The position numbers and the translations under genes were made by a program. Below are positions 35,164-58,210 of a DNA stretch of 64,000 nucleotides, in pieces. The notes under the pieces were generated by a model, which had not been told where the DNA came from, did not search any database, and worked only from the letters and a program-made list of their open reading frames with translations. Source of the DNA: Candidatus Nomurabacteria bacterium (GTDB lineage: Bacteria; Patescibacteriota; Minisyncoccia; Phycocordibacterales; UBA918); assembly GCA_023898585.1 (NCBI GenBank), contig CP060229.1:247707-311706 (forward strand). The letters are read 5' to 3'. The stretch's first letter is position 1, and each line of letters starts with the position of its first letter.

Positions 35164-35207
35164 CTAGCACAAGAAAACCGGCCTCTTGCCGGTTTTCTTG
35201 TGCTAGC
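35164..35207 (+). terminator. Perfect 19-bp hairpin right after tRNA-Gly, shared with the tRNA-Pro locus
   Basis: CTAGCACAAGAAAACCGGC-ctctt-GCCGGTTTTCTTGTGCTAG. Confidence 0.6.
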
Positions 35208-35214
35208 AGGTTGA

Positions 35215-35290
35215 AGTGAGCAAACTGCTTTGCTCATGTGAGGAATCGAAGGACGGAACGATGTGAGGAAGAATGACGAACGAGCGAGTC
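35215..35290 (+). repeat. Conserved tRNA-downstream element, copy A
   Basis: AGTGAGCAAACTGCTTTGCTCATGTGAGGAATCGAAGGACGGAACGATG... is close to 53792-53842. It contains the hairpin TGAGCAAA-ctgc-TTTGCTCA and an inverted T-loop-like GGAATCGAAGG. Confidence 0.7.
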
Positions 35291-35330
35291 GGGGTCGAGA
35301 AAAATTTTCGCAGAACATTTATTCGTGACA

Positions 35331-35349
35331 GATTCCTCTCATCCACACC
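35331..35349 (+). repeat. Degenerate direct copy of the tRNA-Gly(UCC) 3' end
   Basis: GATTCCTCTCATCCACACC versus the tRNA 3' end GATTCCTCTCACCCGCACT. Confidence 0.5.
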
Positions 35350-39977: not shown

Positions 39978-40152
39978 CGGGAACAAACAACTATTTTGTT
40001 CCCGCAATAAACCTTTACCACGATCACGGCCGGTACACGTCGAGGAGTCTGAGCTGATCTCCCAATGAAGCTCTAATGAGGGTTTTTGCCTATGTATGCC
40101 TCTCATCCCGCCTGTGTGTCGTTTGTTGCCTAAGAAATTACTTAGACTCACC
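39978..40152 (-). promoter_or_regulatory. Conserved leader/riboswitch-like element, copy 2 (intact), upstream of the symporter gene
   Basis: About 175 nt aligning with copy 1. On the minus strand a long-range GAGUCU/AGACUC pairing and a GAUGAG/CUCAUY helix are possible. Terminator hairpin GCGGGAACAAA...UUUGUUCCCGC plus UAUCUUCUCU lies about 75 nt before the symporter ATG. Confidence 0.55.
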
Positions 40153-40215
40153 GCCACCATGCATCCTTGTTGATTTATTACGCGCAGGCAGGAACCAAGG
40201 TCTGCGCGTGCGAAC

Positions 40216-41154
40216 TCACTTGGTCCACAGTTCCAGTTCACGCCGATTCAGGGCATTTACCTGCTCCTCATACACTTCTGAGAAGTCGCTCAACTTGAGA
40301 TATTCCTTACCCCAAGGAGCGTAGAACTGTCCGTCCCAGCGGAGCACCACATTAGATGTGGCGATGACACTGTCCGGGTAGTAGACGATCCTACTACCGT
40401 TCGGGGTTTCAGCTTCGAGGCTGTCACCCGTGTCACTCGGCGCCCACGAGAACTCACTAAGAGAACCTCGCAGTATGCGCACGAACTCCGAGTCGTAGAG
40501 ATTGATGAGCTTCGGGATACCCGACAGTAGCACATCAAATCCTTCCCTCACCGTACGTTCGTCGGTAAAGTTGACCTGACCGCGTTTAACGGTCTCTGGG
40601 AAATTGACCACGAGCGCGACCGACATCGGAACATCATAGTCCCGGAGGCGCGCTTCGAAGTCGGACCAACCGTCAAACGACCACGGACTGAACGCGGTTG
40701 ACACGATGGGATCAAATCCAAGCGCTTTGAGGCGCAGGATCGTATCCCAAGCTTTGTCAAACGAGCCAACCTTGCGGCGCTGACGGTCGTGAGCTTCTGG
40801 CGACCCATCGAGGGAGATGCTGATATGGCCATACCGCGACAAGAAATCCTCTCTGCGCATTATGGTATAACCGTTATCAATGATTCCCAACGGAATGTCC
40901 CTTGCGAAACACTCCTCGATGAACCGCTCGCCTCGCGGTGTGAGCGTGCGACCGGCATAAACCACCGGCACACCCCACTTCGCGACTTGATCCGCCTGTG
41001 CAGTCCAGTCATTCCCATCTTTGGGCGACCCGACACCATGCGGCCAGAAGCAATGTTCGCACTTGAGGTTGCACTCAGCGACCGGGACCGCATCCACGCG
41101 TACCGGGTGCAAACTGTACAACTCGCCATTCATCCACTTTTCAATTGCTTTCAT
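40216..41154 (-). CDS. Radical SAM enzyme (CX3CX2C, no SPASM domain), function unknown
   Basis: AECNLKCEHCFW cluster, a glycine-rich region, IIDNGYT and ISLDGS motifs. Start at MKAIEKW has a good RBS (GAGGAAAGAGAAATG). The gene is GC-rich relative to its flanks. Confidence 0.75.
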   Translation of the reverse strand: MKAIEKWMNGELYSLHPVRVDAVPVAECNLKCEHCFWPHGVGSPKDGNDWTAQADQVAKWGVPVVYAGRTLTPRGERFIEECFARDIPLGIIDNGYTIMRREDFLSRYGHISISLDGSPEAHDRQRRKVGSFDKAWDTILRLKALGFDPIVSTAFSPWSFDGWSDFEARLRDYDVPMSVALVVNFPETVKRGQVNFTDERTVREGFDVLLSGIPKLINLYDSEFVRILRGSLSEFSWAPSDTGDSLEAETPNGSRIVYYPDSVIATSNVVLRWDGQFYAPWGKEYLKLSDFSEVYEEQVNALNRRELELWTK

Positions 41155-41739
41155 TTCTCTTTCCTCTTGGTTAGTAGAAATTGCAGCGCTAGTACTCACG
41201 CTGCTGTTCCTACCAACCAAGCTAGAGAATAGTGACAAAGAACAAATCTCAATGGATGCTCGATCTTTGATCAAGCACCTAATAGAGAGGAGGAAGTGTC
41301 TACTTCCTCCGAAATTTAAATGGCAGCCTGAGAAACGTGGCGCTGCCAGACCCCGCTGCCTTCCCGACAGAGGGCGTCCCTTTCAGGACTTTGGCCTTGG
41401 CGGCTCTTTACCCTTAGGCCCGGCGATAACACCCATGGTGTTCCCCCTACCGTTTGGACCGACGGTTTCGGTTTGGGCAGTATGCCCGCTTGACCGTGGA
41501 ACCTCCTTCCCTTTGGGACCGGCGACTGCTGGCATGGTTCTCTCCTCGCCCCCATGGGCTGTTGCGGGGCAGACGCCCCAGGTGTGATGAACTTTGAACT
41601 GCGATAATCATAGCCCAAAGTAGCTTGACAGTTAAATTATTATGTTGCTTTGTGTGCTAATTGGTATAATTACTTTGTTTATTGGGCTTTTTTGGAGTTT
41701 ATGTATTGACGGATTTCCCGTTATTTTTATAATAGAAGG

Positions 41740-42561
41740 ATGTCTAAAGTGACTGATTTAGCACAAACCATTGGCTTGGAAGCCACTGAGTCAACAGTGT
41801 TTAGCTCGCTCTTAGCCGGTGGGCGACAGAATGTCGCCCGCCTCACCCGCGCCTGTGGTGAGCCCCGTTCCACCGTAATCGATACACTCGCCCGCCTCCA
41901 AAAGCGCGGTCTAGTCCGACCAGTCCCAATCGGCAAACACACGGAATGGAAAGTTACCAACGCCATCACGCTGGCGGAGAAATTTCTGCGCGTGGCAGAA
42001 CTATTGCAGGCGCCAGCCGACACTGGCACGCAAGAAAAACATCTGCATCTCCAACTATCACGCGAGTCGGAATTCACCATCTTTGTCGGCTGGCGCAATA
42101 TGATCGCTATCTACAAGCGCGAAATGATCGCCCACGCAAACCAACGTCTTTTGGCAATGCAAAGTGCATCTTCAATCAAGACGGCTTTAGAAAAAGCTGG
42201 TTCTGACGATTTCATACCGGTCAACGATGCCATTCGTGAACACAAGGTAATCATCGAAGCAGTGATTGGCGAAGGGATGTTGAAGTGGTACACCGAACAA
42301 GATCCAAATTGGGTAAAAAGCCTTGAGGGCCGAACGATCGCCTACCGAGTGGTCGAAGACGAACTTCTCGACTTCACCGCCGAACTACTAATATTCAACA
42401 ACCTATTCTTGCTCGTGAACTGGCAAGAGGAAGTGCTGATCCTCATCAAAAACCAACAAATGCTCAACATGATGAAAAAGCTTCATACTCTCATGTATGA
42501 AACCGGCCATCAGTTTGATCAAAATGAGTATTTGCGTAAAGTATTGGAAAATAGGAAGTGA
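41740..42561 (+). CDS. TrmB-like / MarR-type winged-helix transcriptional regulator
   Basis: N-terminal wHTH (ESTVFSSLLAGGRQNVARLTRACGEPRSTVIDTLARLQKRGLV). 273 aa. Confidence 0.6.
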   Translation: MSKVTDLAQTIGLEATESTVFSSLLAGGRQNVARLTRACGEPRSTVIDTLARLQKRGLVRPVPIGKHTEWKVTNAITLAEKFLRVAELLQAPADTGTQEKHLHLQLSRESEFTIFVGWRNMIAIYKREMIAHANQRLLAMQSASSIKTALEKAGSDDFIPVNDAIREHKVIIEAVIGEGMLKWYTEQDPNWVKSLEGRTIAYRVVEDELLDFTAELLIFNNLFLLVNWQEEVLILIKNQQMLNMMKKLHTLMYETGHQFDQNEYLRKVLENRK

Positions 42562-53245: not shown

Positions 53246-53491
53246 GACTCACCCTCGCTTTTTTTTAACAGGAGTGTTATATTTTGCTGACTTAAATCAC
53301 GTTTGTGGTTTTTGTTTGGGTGATCGGGGTGTATCTTCGACTGCGGGCTCGATACATTCCCTCTTTGTTCGGTCATGGTGTGCTATGCAAGCGTAGCTTG
53401 CATCAAGAAATTTTTACCGAGAAGCCGTAAGCAAGCTTCCGCTGCTCGGGAAAAATTTCTTGACTTCTGCACACCACGACGCTCACGACAT

Positions 53492-53533
53492 CGGGGTGTA
53501 GCATAATGGTAGTGTACGCGGTTTGGGGTCTGT
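53492..53533 (+). repeat. 5' fragment of tRNA-Pro (about 42 nt, diverges after the anticodon loop)
   Basis: CGGGGTGTAGCATAATGGTAGTGTACGCGGTTTGGGG, then unrelated sequence. Confidence 0.6.
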
Positions 53534-53562
53534 CCTTTCAATTTTCATATTTTTGGCTACGT

Positions 53563-53633
53563 CGGGGTGTAGCATAATGGTAGTGTACGCGGTTTGGGAC
53601 CGCGCGGCCCGGGTTCGATTCCCGGCTCCCCGA
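53563..53633 (+). tRNA. tRNA-Pro (anticodon UGG); U6-U67 mismatch and two G-U pairs in the D stem
   Basis: CGGGGTG-TA-GCAT-AATGGTA-GTGT-A-CGCGG-tTTGGGa-CCGCG-CGGC-CCGGG-TTCGATT-CCCGG-CTCCCCG-A. The architecture parallels E. coli tRNA-Pro(UGG). Confidence 0.7.
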
Positions 53634-53704
53634 CGTAGCCCGAAATGGAAATTGAAAGAATTGACCAACAAGCTGGGAGCTTGTTGTGGCTTCGAAGAAG
53701 GCGT

Positions 53705-53733
53705 GGCCCGGGTTCGATTCCCGGCTCCCCGAC
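53705..53733 (+). repeat. 3' half copy of tRNA-Pro (T arm plus acceptor 3' strand)
   Basis: GGCCCGGGTTCGATTCCCGGCTCCCCGACA. Confidence 0.7.
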
Positions 53734-53736
53734 AAA

Positions 53737-53778: not shown

Positions 53779-53791
53779 GTAAGGAGGGACT

Positions 53792-53842
53792 AGTGAGCAA
53801 ACTGCTTTGCTCACGTCGGGAATCGAACGGCGGAGCGATGAG
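53792..53842 (+). repeat. Conserved tRNA-downstream element, copy B
   Basis: AGTGAGCAAACTGCTTTGCTCACGTCGGGAATCGAACGGCGGAGCGATGAG versus copy A at 35215. Confidence 0.7.
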
Positions 53843-53911
53843 TTTACGAACAAGTGAGCCGTGTCCCATGGCACCGAGTATTTTGTGGCGCTAAGGATAC
53901 AGAATACGCTA

Positions 53912-53944
53912 GTGACCGTCAGGACGATTCTCCGCTCCCCGACA
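53912..53944 (+). repeat. Degenerate copy of the tRNA-Pro 3' end
   Basis: GACGATTCTCCGCTCCCCGACAAATG. Confidence 0.5.
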
Positions 53945-54322: not shown

Positions 54323-54497
54323 TCTAACATACTGATCATTCACTTTGTTTCACTCATCACTGCTGTTCTTGATGCTATATAAAATTTCATAATCATTATG
54401 TAAGTTAATGAGTATAACACACAAACTAAACTCAGACGTTTGTTTCACGTGGAACACTTCCCTGCTGTTTCATGTAAAAACATCATTTGAACTTTAA

Positions 54498-54728
54498 TTA
54501 AGTTCCAATATATTCAAATCTAGGCTTTTCCACTCCGCCAACCGTAACTTTCTCACAAAACATGTCCTTAGGTCGTACCCACAAGGAATTTAGACCGAAA
54601 TCCTCAGAATCATATAAAGCTCTATAAACAACAAGATCTTCCAGCGTCTCACTATGCTTAGCAACTCCAATAACTTCGTATTCATTACCTTTGTAATGTC
54701 TGTATTTTCCTAGTTTCACGTCAAACAT
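54498..54728 (-). CDS. DUF1653-like small protein
   Basis: KYRHYKGNEYEVIGVAKHSETLEDLVVYRALY...WVRP. Start at MFDVKLG. Confidence 0.6.
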   Translation of the reverse strand: MFDVKLGKYRHYKGNEYEVIGVAKHSETLEDLVVYRALYDSEDFGLNSLWVRPKDMFCEKVTVGGVEKPRFEYIGT

Positions 54729-54732
54729 TATT

Positions 54733-55143
54733 CTAGTATACATTTGATAAGTACTTAACAGAAGCATATTTTTCACGTGGAACCACTCTGATTGCTAAAA
54801 CATCTATTTGCCAATTACCTGCATACTTTTTCTCAGAAATCCAACTTTCAATTGCTTTGGTAAGCCTTTTTATCTTAGAATAGTGTACGTTTTCCTCCGG
54901 ACGCCAAGTTCCACTTGAAATAGCCTTGTTTAGATCATCTTTAGTTTCATATGAAACAGTCTTTACCTCAACAAAATGCACCTTTCCGTCAGTTCCACGT
55001 GCAACAATGTCAATTTCACCCCATTTTTTAAGATAATTACGTTCAATTACAATAAAACTCAGCTTTCCAAGATATTTGGTAGCAATTTCCTCACCCAGAG
55101 CACCAGTTTTGTTTCTTTCTCCCTTTTTATTTTGCTGTTCCAT
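54733..55143 (-). CDS. yraN: UPF0102 / YraN-family endonuclease-like protein
   Basis: GEEIATKYL...GEIDIVARGTDGKVHFVEVKT. Confidence 0.75.
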   Translation of the reverse strand: MEQQNKKGERNKTGALGEEIATKYLGKLSFIVIERNYLKKWGEIDIVARGTDGKVHFVEVKTVSYETKDDLNKAISSGTWRPEENVHYSKIKRLTKAIESWISEKKYAGNWQIDVLAIRVVPREKYASVKYLSNVY

Positions 55144-55370
55144 GTTTAACGACTTTGATATGTTCCACGTGAAACGTCAAATATTTATTTCTAGTATTTG
55201 TTTCATGTGAAATACGGCCTTAATTATAGCAGTATCGTATAAAGGACACTAGGGTTTGAAAAGTGTGGATTGTCCTTTATCCCCATATCAACTGGTTATC
55301 CACAGTTATTAACATACGAAAAACACCTAGTAGGGGTGTCTTTCGTATTTTGTTGAGGCGTCATTATTTG

Positions 55371-55568
55371 TGCGGGTAGGGGTAATCGAAACCTGACGGT
55401 CTCTAAATTCACCCCAAGGGCACTTCCAACGACTTTGTCGAAGGGGCGCGCCACTCATTAAGAGCCGCGGGTCACGCCTCGACTGTCGTACTCTCTTCGC
55501 TCCGTGCGACATGTCTCCGGCGGTTTTGATTACCACGAAAGGTGCGCAGGCACCTTTCTCCTACCCGC
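55371..55568 (-). ncRNA. tRNA-Gly(GCC)-derived structured element of about 198 nt (tRNA 5' and 3' ends flanking a hairpin-rich insert); interrupted pseudo-tRNA or tRNA-like RNA
   Basis: On the minus strand it starts GCGGGTAGG (the tRNA starts GCGGGTATAG) and ends CAGGTTTCGATTACCCCTACCCGCACA (the tRNA ends GGGGTTTCGATTACCCCTACCCGCACCA). The insert contains AAAGGTGC-ctgc-GCACCTTT and CGAC-aaa-GTCG hairpins. Confidence 0.45.
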
Positions 55569-55573
55569 AGTCG

Positions 55574-55600
55574 AAAAAAGCCCTTTGTGGGGGCTTTTTT
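55574..55600 (-). terminator. Terminator after tRNA-Gly(GCC)
   Basis: Minus strand: AAAAAAGCCCCCACAAAGGGCTTTTTT. Confidence 0.65.
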
Positions 55601-55602
55601 CT

Positions 55603-55676
55603 TGGTGCGGGTAGGGGTAATCGAAACCCCGTCTTCTGATTGGCAACCAGACGTTCTACCACTAAACTATACCCGC
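55603..55676 (-). tRNA. tRNA-Gly (anticodon GCC), CCA encoded
   Basis: Minus strand: GCGGGTA-TA-GTTT-AGTGGTA-GAAC-G-TCTGG-tTGCCaa-TCAGA-AGAC-GGGGT-TTCGATT-ACCCC-TACCCGC-A-CCA. Confidence 0.85.
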
Positions 55677-55692
55677 ATTTTATCTCTTCCTG

Positions 55693-56358
55693 TTAAACAG
55701 TTGTTCTATTTAATACCATTTCAGGTAATTGGTCAATCCACAGATTTATCTTCTTTTTTAGATAAGTGTTTGAGACAACAACCGTACACACTCCGTGTGG
55801 CAGTTTTTTTGTTTTGTGCCTACTGGGCAACACTTGGGTTTTGTGAAACTTTTGAATACCGGTGATGTCACTCCAAAAATTTTTACACACTGTTTCATTT
55901 AAGTCTGTATAGATAAATAAGGCCAATTTAATCTTCTCGATCGGTACTTTACAGATAATCAAAAGGAATTCTAGAAAAATCTGGATCATTTTAGGGTCAG
56001 TATTTGTTAGTCTAACTTGATTACGGCTCAATTTGTCACCTTCGCCCCAATAAGCGAAAACTGCCGAGATAAAGAGGGGATCATTTTTGTATTTTTCCAT
56101 TTCCATTTGTGCCTCTTGCTTGGCAACCTCATACGACGCTCTTAGTGTCTCGCCACGAGTTCGGTTTAAATCTTTTATTCTTGCAGAACTAGTACGCCTT
56201 GATTCTTCTACCAAGCTTTTTCTAATTTTCTCTGAAAAATCAACACCTTTAAACCAATTTGAAAGGGTGCTTTTTGATATACCCAATTTGTCACAAATAT
56301 CCCTATAGCTCTTTCCTTGTTGACGTAATGCAAAGGCTTTGTCTTTATCTGTTCTCAT
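55693..56358 (-). CDS. HTH plus LAGLIDADG-like motif protein, paralog D, immediately 5' of tRNA-Gly(GCC)
   Basis: LRQQGKSYRDICDKLGISKSTLSNWFK HTH and the motif DPLFISAVFAYWGEGDK. The stop lies 17 nt from the tRNA 5' end. Confidence 0.7.
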   Translation of the reverse strand: MRTDKDKAFALRQQGKSYRDICDKLGISKSTLSNWFKGVDFSEKIRKSLVEESRRTSSARIKDLNRTRGETLRASYEVAKQEAQMEMEKYKNDPLFISAVFAYWGEGDKLSRNQVRLTNTDPKMIQIFLEFLLIICKVPIEKIKLALFIYTDLNETVCKNFWSDITGIQKFHKTQVLPSRHKTKKLPHGVCTVVVSNTYLKKKINLWIDQLPEMVLNRTTV

Positions 56359-58027: not shown

Positions 58028-58210
58028 GCTGTCATTGTATCAGAAATCTGAACGATAAAAGCACCTAATTAGGCGCTTAAATCATGTGTGCACCTGCCAG
58101 GACTCGGTCACAAGTCGCTCCCTTCAGTCGCGCTCGCGACCCCGCCTCCTTACGCTTCACTCCAGTCCGGCTTTCGAGTTTGCCCCCAACAATGCGAGAC
58201 CAAACTAAAA

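Follow-up and report, generated by a model that had tools for sequence, protein, structure and literature searches.

What kind of sequence lies behind the glycine tRNA gene at this locus? The window, a stretch of 64,000 nucleotides from Candidatus Nomurabacteria bacterium (contig CP060229.1, positions 247,707 to 311,706), carries a tRNA-Gly(GCC) gene at 55603..55676 on the minus strand, and directly 3' of it lies a 198-nt sequence, E1 (55568..55371, minus strand). A first-pass annotation described E1 as a structured element made from the two ends of the tRNA around a hairpin-rich insert, and offered a disrupted tRNA gene, an attachment-site scar or an expressed tRNA-like RNA as possible readings. 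Judged by sequence comparison, E1 belongs to a large family of non-coding insertions of ~110–250 bp at the 3' ends of tRNA and transfer-messenger RNA (tmRNA) genes, together t(m)RNAs, mainly in Patescibacteria (the candidate phyla radiation, CPR). In this family, the intact tRNA is followed by a short hairpin or a terminator, then by an antisense tRNA segment (A'), a core with a three-way junction and a copy of the tRNA 3' end. E1 lies 3' of a tRNA and has the antisense tail, a 9-bp stem capped by a 4-nt loop, and the distal tail copy.

The adjoining tRNA-Gly(GCC) is intact, as annotated; it is called by ARAGORN and scores 71.4 bits with the Rfam tRNA model. The 3' end of E1, GGTTTCGATTACCCCTACCCGCA (55393-55371, minus strand), is an exact repeat of the tRNA at 55628-55606, runs from the T-loop to the discriminator and closes the helix of the element. 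It extends over 23 nt and not over the 26 nt claimed previously. Even with three mismatches allowed, the 23-mer has two copies in the window, with none expected. The 5' end, GCGGGTAGG (55560..55568, minus strand), had been described as a 9-nt match to the tRNA; seven nucleotides correspond to the tRNA 5' end (GCGGGTA) and the other two differ. The relevant property of the segment is its complementarity to the 3' copy, which includes all nine nucleotides. It mimics the 5' strand of the acceptor, pairs with CCTACCCGC and forms the first half of A'. The 9-mer or its complement occurs three times in the window, always at the E1 locus (0.14 expected). Between the two ends are ~165 nt of hairpin-rich sequence, and the hairpins reported there (AAAGGTGC/GCACCTTT, GGCGCGCC and CGAC-aaa-GTCG) are all found in E1. 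The minimum free energy (MFE) of E1 is −92.2 kcal/mol, as compared to −65.8 ± 4.8 kcal/mol for 200 shuffles (z = −5.5), which bears out the description as a structured element. In the MFE fold, the 9-nt 5' end is paired with the 3' end.

Comparison with related genomes shows how E1 came to lie behind the tRNA. The gene order is conserved in relatives (cca, helix-turn-helix (HTH) open reading frame (ORF), tRNA-Arg, HTH-ORF, tRNA-Gly(GCC), UPF0102). The tRNA-Gly(GCC) site is empty in L047, holds a remnant consisting only of A', the hairpin and the anti-T segment in L050, and carries a different core, of type A, in L051. Two tandem elements are located at this site in L052, the proximal one with a core that is non-alignable with that of E1, and L054 has yet another variant. 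The sequence 3' of the distal repeat of E1 aligns with the sequence right after the tRNA of L047, including DnaA-box-like motifs and the native tRNA terminator, which now lies 3' of E1 (55314..55350, minus strand; its hairpin was called on the opposite strand). The tRNA-Gly(GCC) of the window ends in GCACCA, followed by a new hairpin. The empty-site orthologue in L047 ends in GCACAAAA, and both this native gene and the distal repeat finish with GCACAAA and have no CCA. As the native flank follows the distal copy, the event was an insertion that supplied a new tRNA 3' end with its CCA; from the alignment, the host's original tRNA 3' end and the native flank were displaced to the far border of the element. 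The inserted unit of ~235 bp comprises the tRNA 3' end with CCA, the hairpin, A', the side hairpin and the core, and contains no ORF of note. Under this insertion model, the 3' part of the present tRNA-Gly(GCC) and its encoded CCA would be derived from the element. As at genomic islands, the insert lies between direct repeats of the tRNA 3' end, and it is the element that makes the gene whole again. The idea of an attachment-site scar is correct for the last 23 nt, which are the displaced host tRNA end joined to its native flank and terminator and resemble an attR site; the remainder of E1 is a conserved, covarying element and not a scar.

The hairpin that separates the tRNA from E1, spacer X (GAAAAAAGCCC-CCACAAA-GGGCTTTTTTC, 55573..55601, minus strand), resembles a weak terminator and arrived with the element. 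It is near-identical in the proximal, orthologous element of L052 and missing at the empty site of L047. Its stem has merely four G-C pairs and was not called in the terminator scan. The T-arm of tRNA-Gly(GCC) (55606-55634) reads GGGGT-TTCGATT-ACCCC and so has U53-A61, where G53-C61 is near-universal in tRNA T-arms. U53-A61 is also found in carriers of elements of the E1 core subtype (L055, L063-L065, L071, L077, L098 and L121), and the T-arm at the empty site of L047 is GGGAG-TTCGATT-CTCCC. The U53-A61 T-arm may be derived from the element.

The same layout follows all four tRNAs of the window. At the other three, the tRNA is succeeded by a hairpin, a short stretch complementary to the 3' strand of the acceptor, a second hairpin, a segment antisense to the tRNA's own T-arm and the shared motifs GGAGC..GCGAG, GGGGTCG and GTGACC; the elements end in a copy of the 3' end of their own tRNA, beginning in the T-loop. 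E2 (58089..58198, minus strand) lies 3' of tRNA-Arg(TCG) and has a short type A core (43.5 bits with covariance model R1, E 1.4e-10); the orthologous sites in L047, L050 and L051 have no space for an element. E3 (35207..35347, plus strand), 3' of tRNA-Gly(TCC), also has a type A core (R1, 78.4 bits) and contains the hairpin GTGAGCAAACTGCTTTGCTCA. E4 (53779..53943, plus strand), 3' of tRNA-Pro(TGG), shares core subtype A2 with E1 (76.5 bits with model R2, E 5e-16).

The hairpin GTGAGCAAACTGCTTTGCTCA is common to two of the window elements. Searching one genome per species for exact matches gave 39 loci, nearly all directly 3' of a tRNA and one 3' of a tmRNA. The hosts are Saccharibacteria, many lineages of Parcubacteria, one Elusimicrobia metagenome-assembled genome (MAG) and one GC-rich Betaproteobacteria MAG. 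We infer that the family spreads horizontally and turns over fast; horizontal spread is indicated by the 39 species-level genomes of these lineages that share the 21-nt hairpin unchanged. In the Betaproteobacteria MAG (L023), two tandem copies with 68% G+C follow tRNA-Arg(CCG), and in the Elusimicrobia MAG (L014) a second copy ends inside the hairpin loop; in both, the 21-nt hairpin is identical. A generic test of the layout, based on a second copy of the tRNA tail no more than 600 nt away, was positive for 36 of 93 t(m)RNAs at the first 39 loci and in the window. Together with metagenomic loci, the tally is 72 distinct tRNA-element pairs, which involve 23 t(m)RNA species, a tmRNA among them. 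In L019, the same four tRNA species as in the window carry elements.

A' complements the T-loop, the 3' strand of the T stem and the 3' strand of the acceptor of its own tRNA. A 9-bp/4-nt hairpin interrupts A' precisely at the boundary between acceptor and T stem in about half of the copies; otherwise A' is contiguous, and in many family members the contiguous A' reaches into the T-loop. E1 belongs to the split form. Its hairpin, Hc (GAAAGGTGC-CTGC-GCACCTTTC, 55537..55558, minus strand), has a 9-bp stem and a CUGC loop in sequence and fold, occupies the position of the D and anticodon arms of a tRNA, and has identical copies in L098, L065, L077 and L121. The second half of A', the anti-T segment GGTAATCAAAACC (55522..55534, minus strand), complements the T-arm sequence GGTTTCGATTACC with one A.C mismatch. 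Across the family, the Hc position is filled by 17 distinct 9-4-9 hairpins with covarying stems and mostly CUGC loops, whose non-Watson–Crick pairs on the tRNA-sense strand are G.T in nine cases and A.C in none. Where proximal and distal tails differ, A' agrees with the proximal tail 51 times and with the distal tail 12 times (8 ties), an excess that is partly due to A' reaching T-loop positions absent from the distal copy. This agreement fits a proximal tail and A' that travel together in the element.

Several core types exist. The structure of type A was taken from an alignment of 12 sequences and consists of a closing helix (P2) and two arms. P3 starts with a GNC...GN'C helix, in which N' complements N, and continues with a G/A-rich internal loop (GGAGC/GCGAG) and a variable hairpin. 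P4 is formed by GGUCG/UGACC with an invariant G.U, followed by the second variable hairpin. R1, the covariance model built from the 12 sequences, has 38 matches. When aligned to this model, 90.7% of the cells are paired (70.1% in shuffles, 29–53% with slid partners), and 148 cells show double changes as compared to 42. On the tRNA-sense strand, the type A core helices contain 58 G.U/U.G against 14 A.C/C.A pairs. The slid-partner controls and the strand bias are less affected by model fitting.

E1 itself was not detected by R1. It shares GACCGTCAGG with E4, and metagenomes were scanned with a pattern built around this sequence. The scan gave 48 matches in the expected anti-T context, 39 of them distinct, at tRNA-Gly, -Pro, -Arg, -Met and others; further matches in coding DNA are chance-like. 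E1 aligns end to end with ~30 of the metagenomic copies (subtype A2). In the 4-bp P3 of A2, RNAalifold finds two covarying positions, one supported by 5 double changes and the other by 11; in P4, pair 89/173 is U-A in 15 copies and A-U in 14, and the first base pair of Pb, the variable hairpin of P4, occurs in all four Watson–Crick forms. Model R2, built without E1, E4 and the closest relatives of E1, scores E1 with 72.3 bits (E 5.4e-15, span 55379-55536, minus strand). The P3-type motif of E1 is also present in the type A core, and types A and A2 cross-hit and are therefore related. In E1, arm P3 (55475..55522, minus strand; A5 alignment and RNAalifold) comprises CGCC...GGCG, a G/A-rich internal loop (GGAGA/TCGAG) and the variable hairpin Pa. 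Arm P4 (55392..55474, minus strand; from the alignment) reads TGACC-C-GCGG, the long hairpin Pb (55401-55464) and A-CCGT-CA-GG. GUGNCCCGCGGC and GACCGUCAGG are invariant in P4, the latter partly imposed by the search pattern. Since E1 aligns with these copies and is scored by a model that lacks it, the former 'hairpin-rich insert' is a conserved core with an unusually long Pb. The annotation had held that an undetected transcript together with an insert that has neither homologs nor covariation would speak for a pseudogene scar; homologs and covariation are both found. The motif GAGCGAAGCGA(A/G) or GCGAAGC recurs in Pa and Pb loops and in some spacers (e.g. 55490-55502, L001, L016, L062 and L114); it has a 2-bp mini-stem and a GAA/GUA/GNNA loop flanked by G.A. 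An expressed tRNA-like RNA is plausible for E1 as a model, as the constraints on the fold favour the tRNA-sense strand (G.U over A.C).

The element does not correspond to a known RNA family. With the Rfam models for tRNA, tmRNA and group I and II introns, the neighbouring tRNA is called (also by ARAGORN) and 55371-55568 remains unmatched by cmscan at E up to 10; for the intron models (Intron_gpI and group II) this holds for 55200-55800. ARAGORN reports no tmRNA in the window, and the sole tmRNA match, to tmRNA_permuted, is a partial one of 13 bits over the tRNA tail and spacer; the acceptor has G3-C70. None of the hammerhead, HDV-like, twister, twister-sister, pistol, hatchet and hairpin ribozymes is found at E ≤ 10 in 55200-55800 or at E ≤ 1 in four other carriers. 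Rfam scans of the window and the four carriers at gathering and permissive thresholds gave tRNA and tmRNA matches only. No IS110, IscB or TnpB gene adjoins E1, and no Rfam guide RNA matches it. The literature on CPR tRNA group I introns, the tmRNA database and the literature on TIGR-Tas contain no description of the element that we could find. Three further candidates were rejected. The 22-bp palindromic hairpin as a cleavage site of the neighbouring LAGLIDADG-fold protein does not agree with its free variation with covariation, and the neighbouring ORFs are conserved syntenic genes that are also present at empty sites. The template and variable repeats of a diversity-generating retroelement do not agree with repeat differences that are not adenine-specific, nor does a retroviral-style primer-binding site agree with a complementarity that tracks the genomic trailer and not the mature CCA.

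The results above show that E1 is an insertion, that it belongs to a family, that it folds and that the fold is biased towards one strand. Building on them, we favour E1 as a non-autonomous mobile element that targets tRNA genes and whose RNA is probably excised by tRNA-processing enzymes. The element would be transcribed from the tRNA promoter, by read-through or, in some copies, with no terminator at all. Co-transcription is suggested by the elements of L012 and L019, which start 7–20 nt after the tRNA without a terminator, and by the weakness of the spacer hairpin of E1. In the transcript, A' and the displaced tail would rebuild an acceptor stem of 7–9 bp stacked on the T stem, with the 9-bp hairpin in place of the D and anticodon arms; the cap would be tRNA-shaped, and the conserved core would replace the T-loop as an enlarged 'T-loop'. 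RNase P, RNase Z and the CCA enzyme need no more than a minihelix of acceptor and T stem for recognition. They are therefore predicted, with RNase P and the enzymes of the tRNA 3' end and CCA at work, to free a discrete, stable RNA of ~200 nt. Integration most likely occurs by recombination in a shared segment, by analogy with integrase-borne islands. The tRNA segment of the element would recombine with the stretch from T-loop to 3' end of the target by means of a trans-acting enzyme. Our best guess is that the core RNA would serve the element's own maintenance or mobility.

A number of points weigh against this reading. Alignments derived from a covariance model lean towards the modelled structure, and so does the percentage of paired cells; part of P4 was predetermined by the metagenome pattern. 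The covariation would be explained equally well if the sense strand folded as single-stranded DNA (ssDNA). Pairing of the distal copy in P1/P2 shows no G.U excess (80 vs 67), and selection for a tRNA-like cap in the integrated state is therefore undemonstrated. No mover or parent was seen: BLAST of E1 and a type A element against phages and plasmids gave tRNA matches or none, a scan of IMG/VR with the type A core pattern gave no match, and no larger cargo-bearing parent was found, with no second tRNA-tail copy 0.6–9 kb away. ORF clustering at ~100 carrier loci showed no enrichment of an integrase, transposase or reverse transcriptase; the clusters are syntenic housekeeping genes only (UPF0102, the CCA enzyme and the HTH-LAGLIDADG ORF), and a Xer-like recombinase is near 5 of the loci. 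The 21-nt hairpin sequence has seven matches in IMG/VR, in one phage coding region with no tRNA nearby, which we regard as coincidence.

A more novel reading is that of elements that need no protein of their own. They could be a new class of self-targeting mobile RNAs or ssDNA circles that combine a target copy and its complement, a tRNA-shaped rod and a conserved catalytic or recruiting core, base-pairing directing insertion at the T-loop-to-3'-end of t(m)RNA genes. We entertain this tentatively, and a guide-like A', or a single-stranded or circular intermediate, is as doubtful. Unlikely in our view is the account in which A' acts as a guide that pairs with the tRNA gene or the tRNA and picks the insertion site, the core being a ribozyme or a scaffold for a recombinase or reverse transcriptase, and the free form a circle of ~200–250 nt, i.e. 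a rod (A:A') with spacer and core at opposite tips. It would explain why A' always fits its own target, whichever of the 23 t(m)RNA species this is, why A' reaches into the T-loop beyond the need for pairing with the distal copy, and why many copies have a single long, almost perfect hairpin made of the proximal tail, spacer and A'. The invariant G.U in P4, GNRA-like loops and tandem G.A motifs, and the tandem arrays of different cores at single tRNAs are also consistent with it. Yet the neighbour clustering yields no associated protein, the ribozyme searches (E up to 10 at the locus, up to 1 in the four carriers) no match, and no circular junction was observed; moreover, tRNA-Glu elements share spacers across classes, and such tRNA-specific lineages suggest that retargeting is rare rather than programmable. 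The absence of a mobility enzyme would equally suit a tRNA-shaped regulatory or decoy RNA of benefit to the host, spread by transformation and homologous recombination with the tRNA gene and the 3' repeat as arms, and acting, for example, as a decoy for toxins or enzymes that bind the acceptor or T-arm, or in tRNA homeostasis. The strong conservation of the core structure, the tRNA-like geometry (acceptor of 7–9 bp, T stem, 9-bp side hairpin at the 7/49 junction) and the elements on all four tRNAs of the window and on the same four species in L019 point the same way. The patchy occurrence in closely related genomes, the remnants and truncated copies found at one site, decay of many distal repeats and non-alignable cores at orthologous sites make it less likely again.

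Two of the readings offered by the first-pass annotation fare worst. A direct repeat of the tRNA 3' end from the T-loop is the classic signature of an integrase island, and E1 could be the functionless attR end of a degraded prophage or island once located in tRNA-Gly. This is very improbable: the size is uniform, no island genes are left, and the core of ~100 nt recurs with covariation beside many tRNAs in many phyla, a family-wide conservation that contradicts a plain scar. Least probable of all is a tRNA pseudogene, or a tRNA gene that contains a non-canonical intron or insertion. In favour of this are the first seven nucleotides and the preserved acceptor pairing, but the D and anticodon arms are missing, no tRNA, tmRNA or intron model matches, and the 5' segment is the antisense of the tRNA 3' end, contiguous in relatives. 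One core type follows 23 different t(m)RNA species, and the empty-site comparison places the insertion 3' of an intact tRNA.

Other features of the window were noted. The tRNA-Pro(TGG) gene (53563-53634) that precedes E4 is flanked by copies of its own 5' part (53488-53527, nucleotides 1–37) and 3' part (53701-53733), and its spacers contain complementary arms (53527-53567 and 53628-53666). By sequence, 53488-53735 has the appearance of an older tRNA-Pro gene whose anticodon loop received a complete tRNA-Pro cassette. A palindromic 15-mer, GTTTCACGTGGAACA, has seven copies around the UPF0102 and DUF1653 genes (54440-55300), and DnaA-box-like motifs (TGTGGATAA and GGATAAAGGACAATCCACA) are located right after E1; both are conserved in L047 and L054. 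The cumulative GC skew has its minimum near 60 kb of the window, and together with these motifs this may indicate that the replication origin is close. At 40001-42000, the G+C content is 0.53 as compared to ~0.43 elsewhere, with no Rfam match there.

tRNA genes are classic landing sites for islands and phages and, to our knowledge, are always entered via an encoded integrase. Here a conserved, gene-less unit of ~200 bp occupies such sites at many tRNAs and in much of the Patescibacteria, whose genomes are otherwise stripped down. It represents a new structured RNA family with clear covariation that is absent from Rfam 15. The elements alter the tRNA genes by adding an encoded CCA and new terminators and may replace T-arms; they also break assemblies and confuse the annotation of tRNA loci. 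They raise the question of what recognises and moves a tRNA-shaped RNA or DNA with a built-in target copy. If A' were a guide, the elements would amount to a minimal, programmable system for insertion. If they were self-targeting mobile RNAs or ssDNA circles, they would be genomic parasites the size of a viroid that live on the tRNA genes of bacteria whose genomes are very small.

Among known systems, islands and prophages of tyrosine integrases and elements like the cis-mobilisable elements (CIMEs) share the t(m)RNA target, the repeat from T-loop to discriminator, the supply of a new tRNA 3' end that keeps the gene intact and the tandem accretion at one site. The elements described here differ in having only 110–250 bp, no integrase or other gene and no larger parent found, and in carrying a conserved folded core as well as a copy of the target in antisense; a single core type serves more than 20 tRNAs. 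Miniature inverted-repeat transposable elements (MITEs) are recognised by terminal inverted repeats of their own, a short target-site duplication and a cognate transposase family. In the elements described here, inverted repeats (A' and its complement A) are present but derive from the target and differ for each tRNA, the 'duplication' is 17–26 bp, and no parent transposon is known. Integron attC cassettes and the attP site of CTX-phi (XerCD) resemble the elements in conserving structure over sequence, in a strand-specific fold, in an intramolecular duplex of the target site and in small units arrayed at a single site. In contrast to these, no IntI- or Xer-type enzyme is linked, the target is a tRNA gene, and the motifs of the core (GNRA-like loops, tandem G.A, three-way junction) look RNA-like. 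The strand bias of the fold agrees as well with RNA as with ssDNA, and an ssDNA stage would be hypothetical. The exon- and intron-binding sequences (EBS/IBS) of group II introns, the IS110 bridge RNA and the omega RNAs of IscB and TnpB likewise have a segment complementary to adjoining DNA, in an RNA of 150–200 nt. The tRNA-end elements lack an intron core, a recombinase or nuclease gene and an Rfam match, and their complementarity extends over 20–25 nt and also pairs in cis. Structural parallels are tmRNA, viral tRNA-like structures, mascRNA and dicistronic tRNA-snoRNA, in which a mimic of acceptor and T stem closes a large extra domain, as it would in E1; ends made by RNase P and 3' enzymes and co-transcription with, or as, a tRNA-like unit would be further likenesses. 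E1 differs from tmRNA, as G3.U70, a tag reading frame, pseudoknots and an intact T-loop are absent, the extra domain replaces the T-loop and not the anticodon arm, and the cap is formed from a displaced piece of the adjacent gene.
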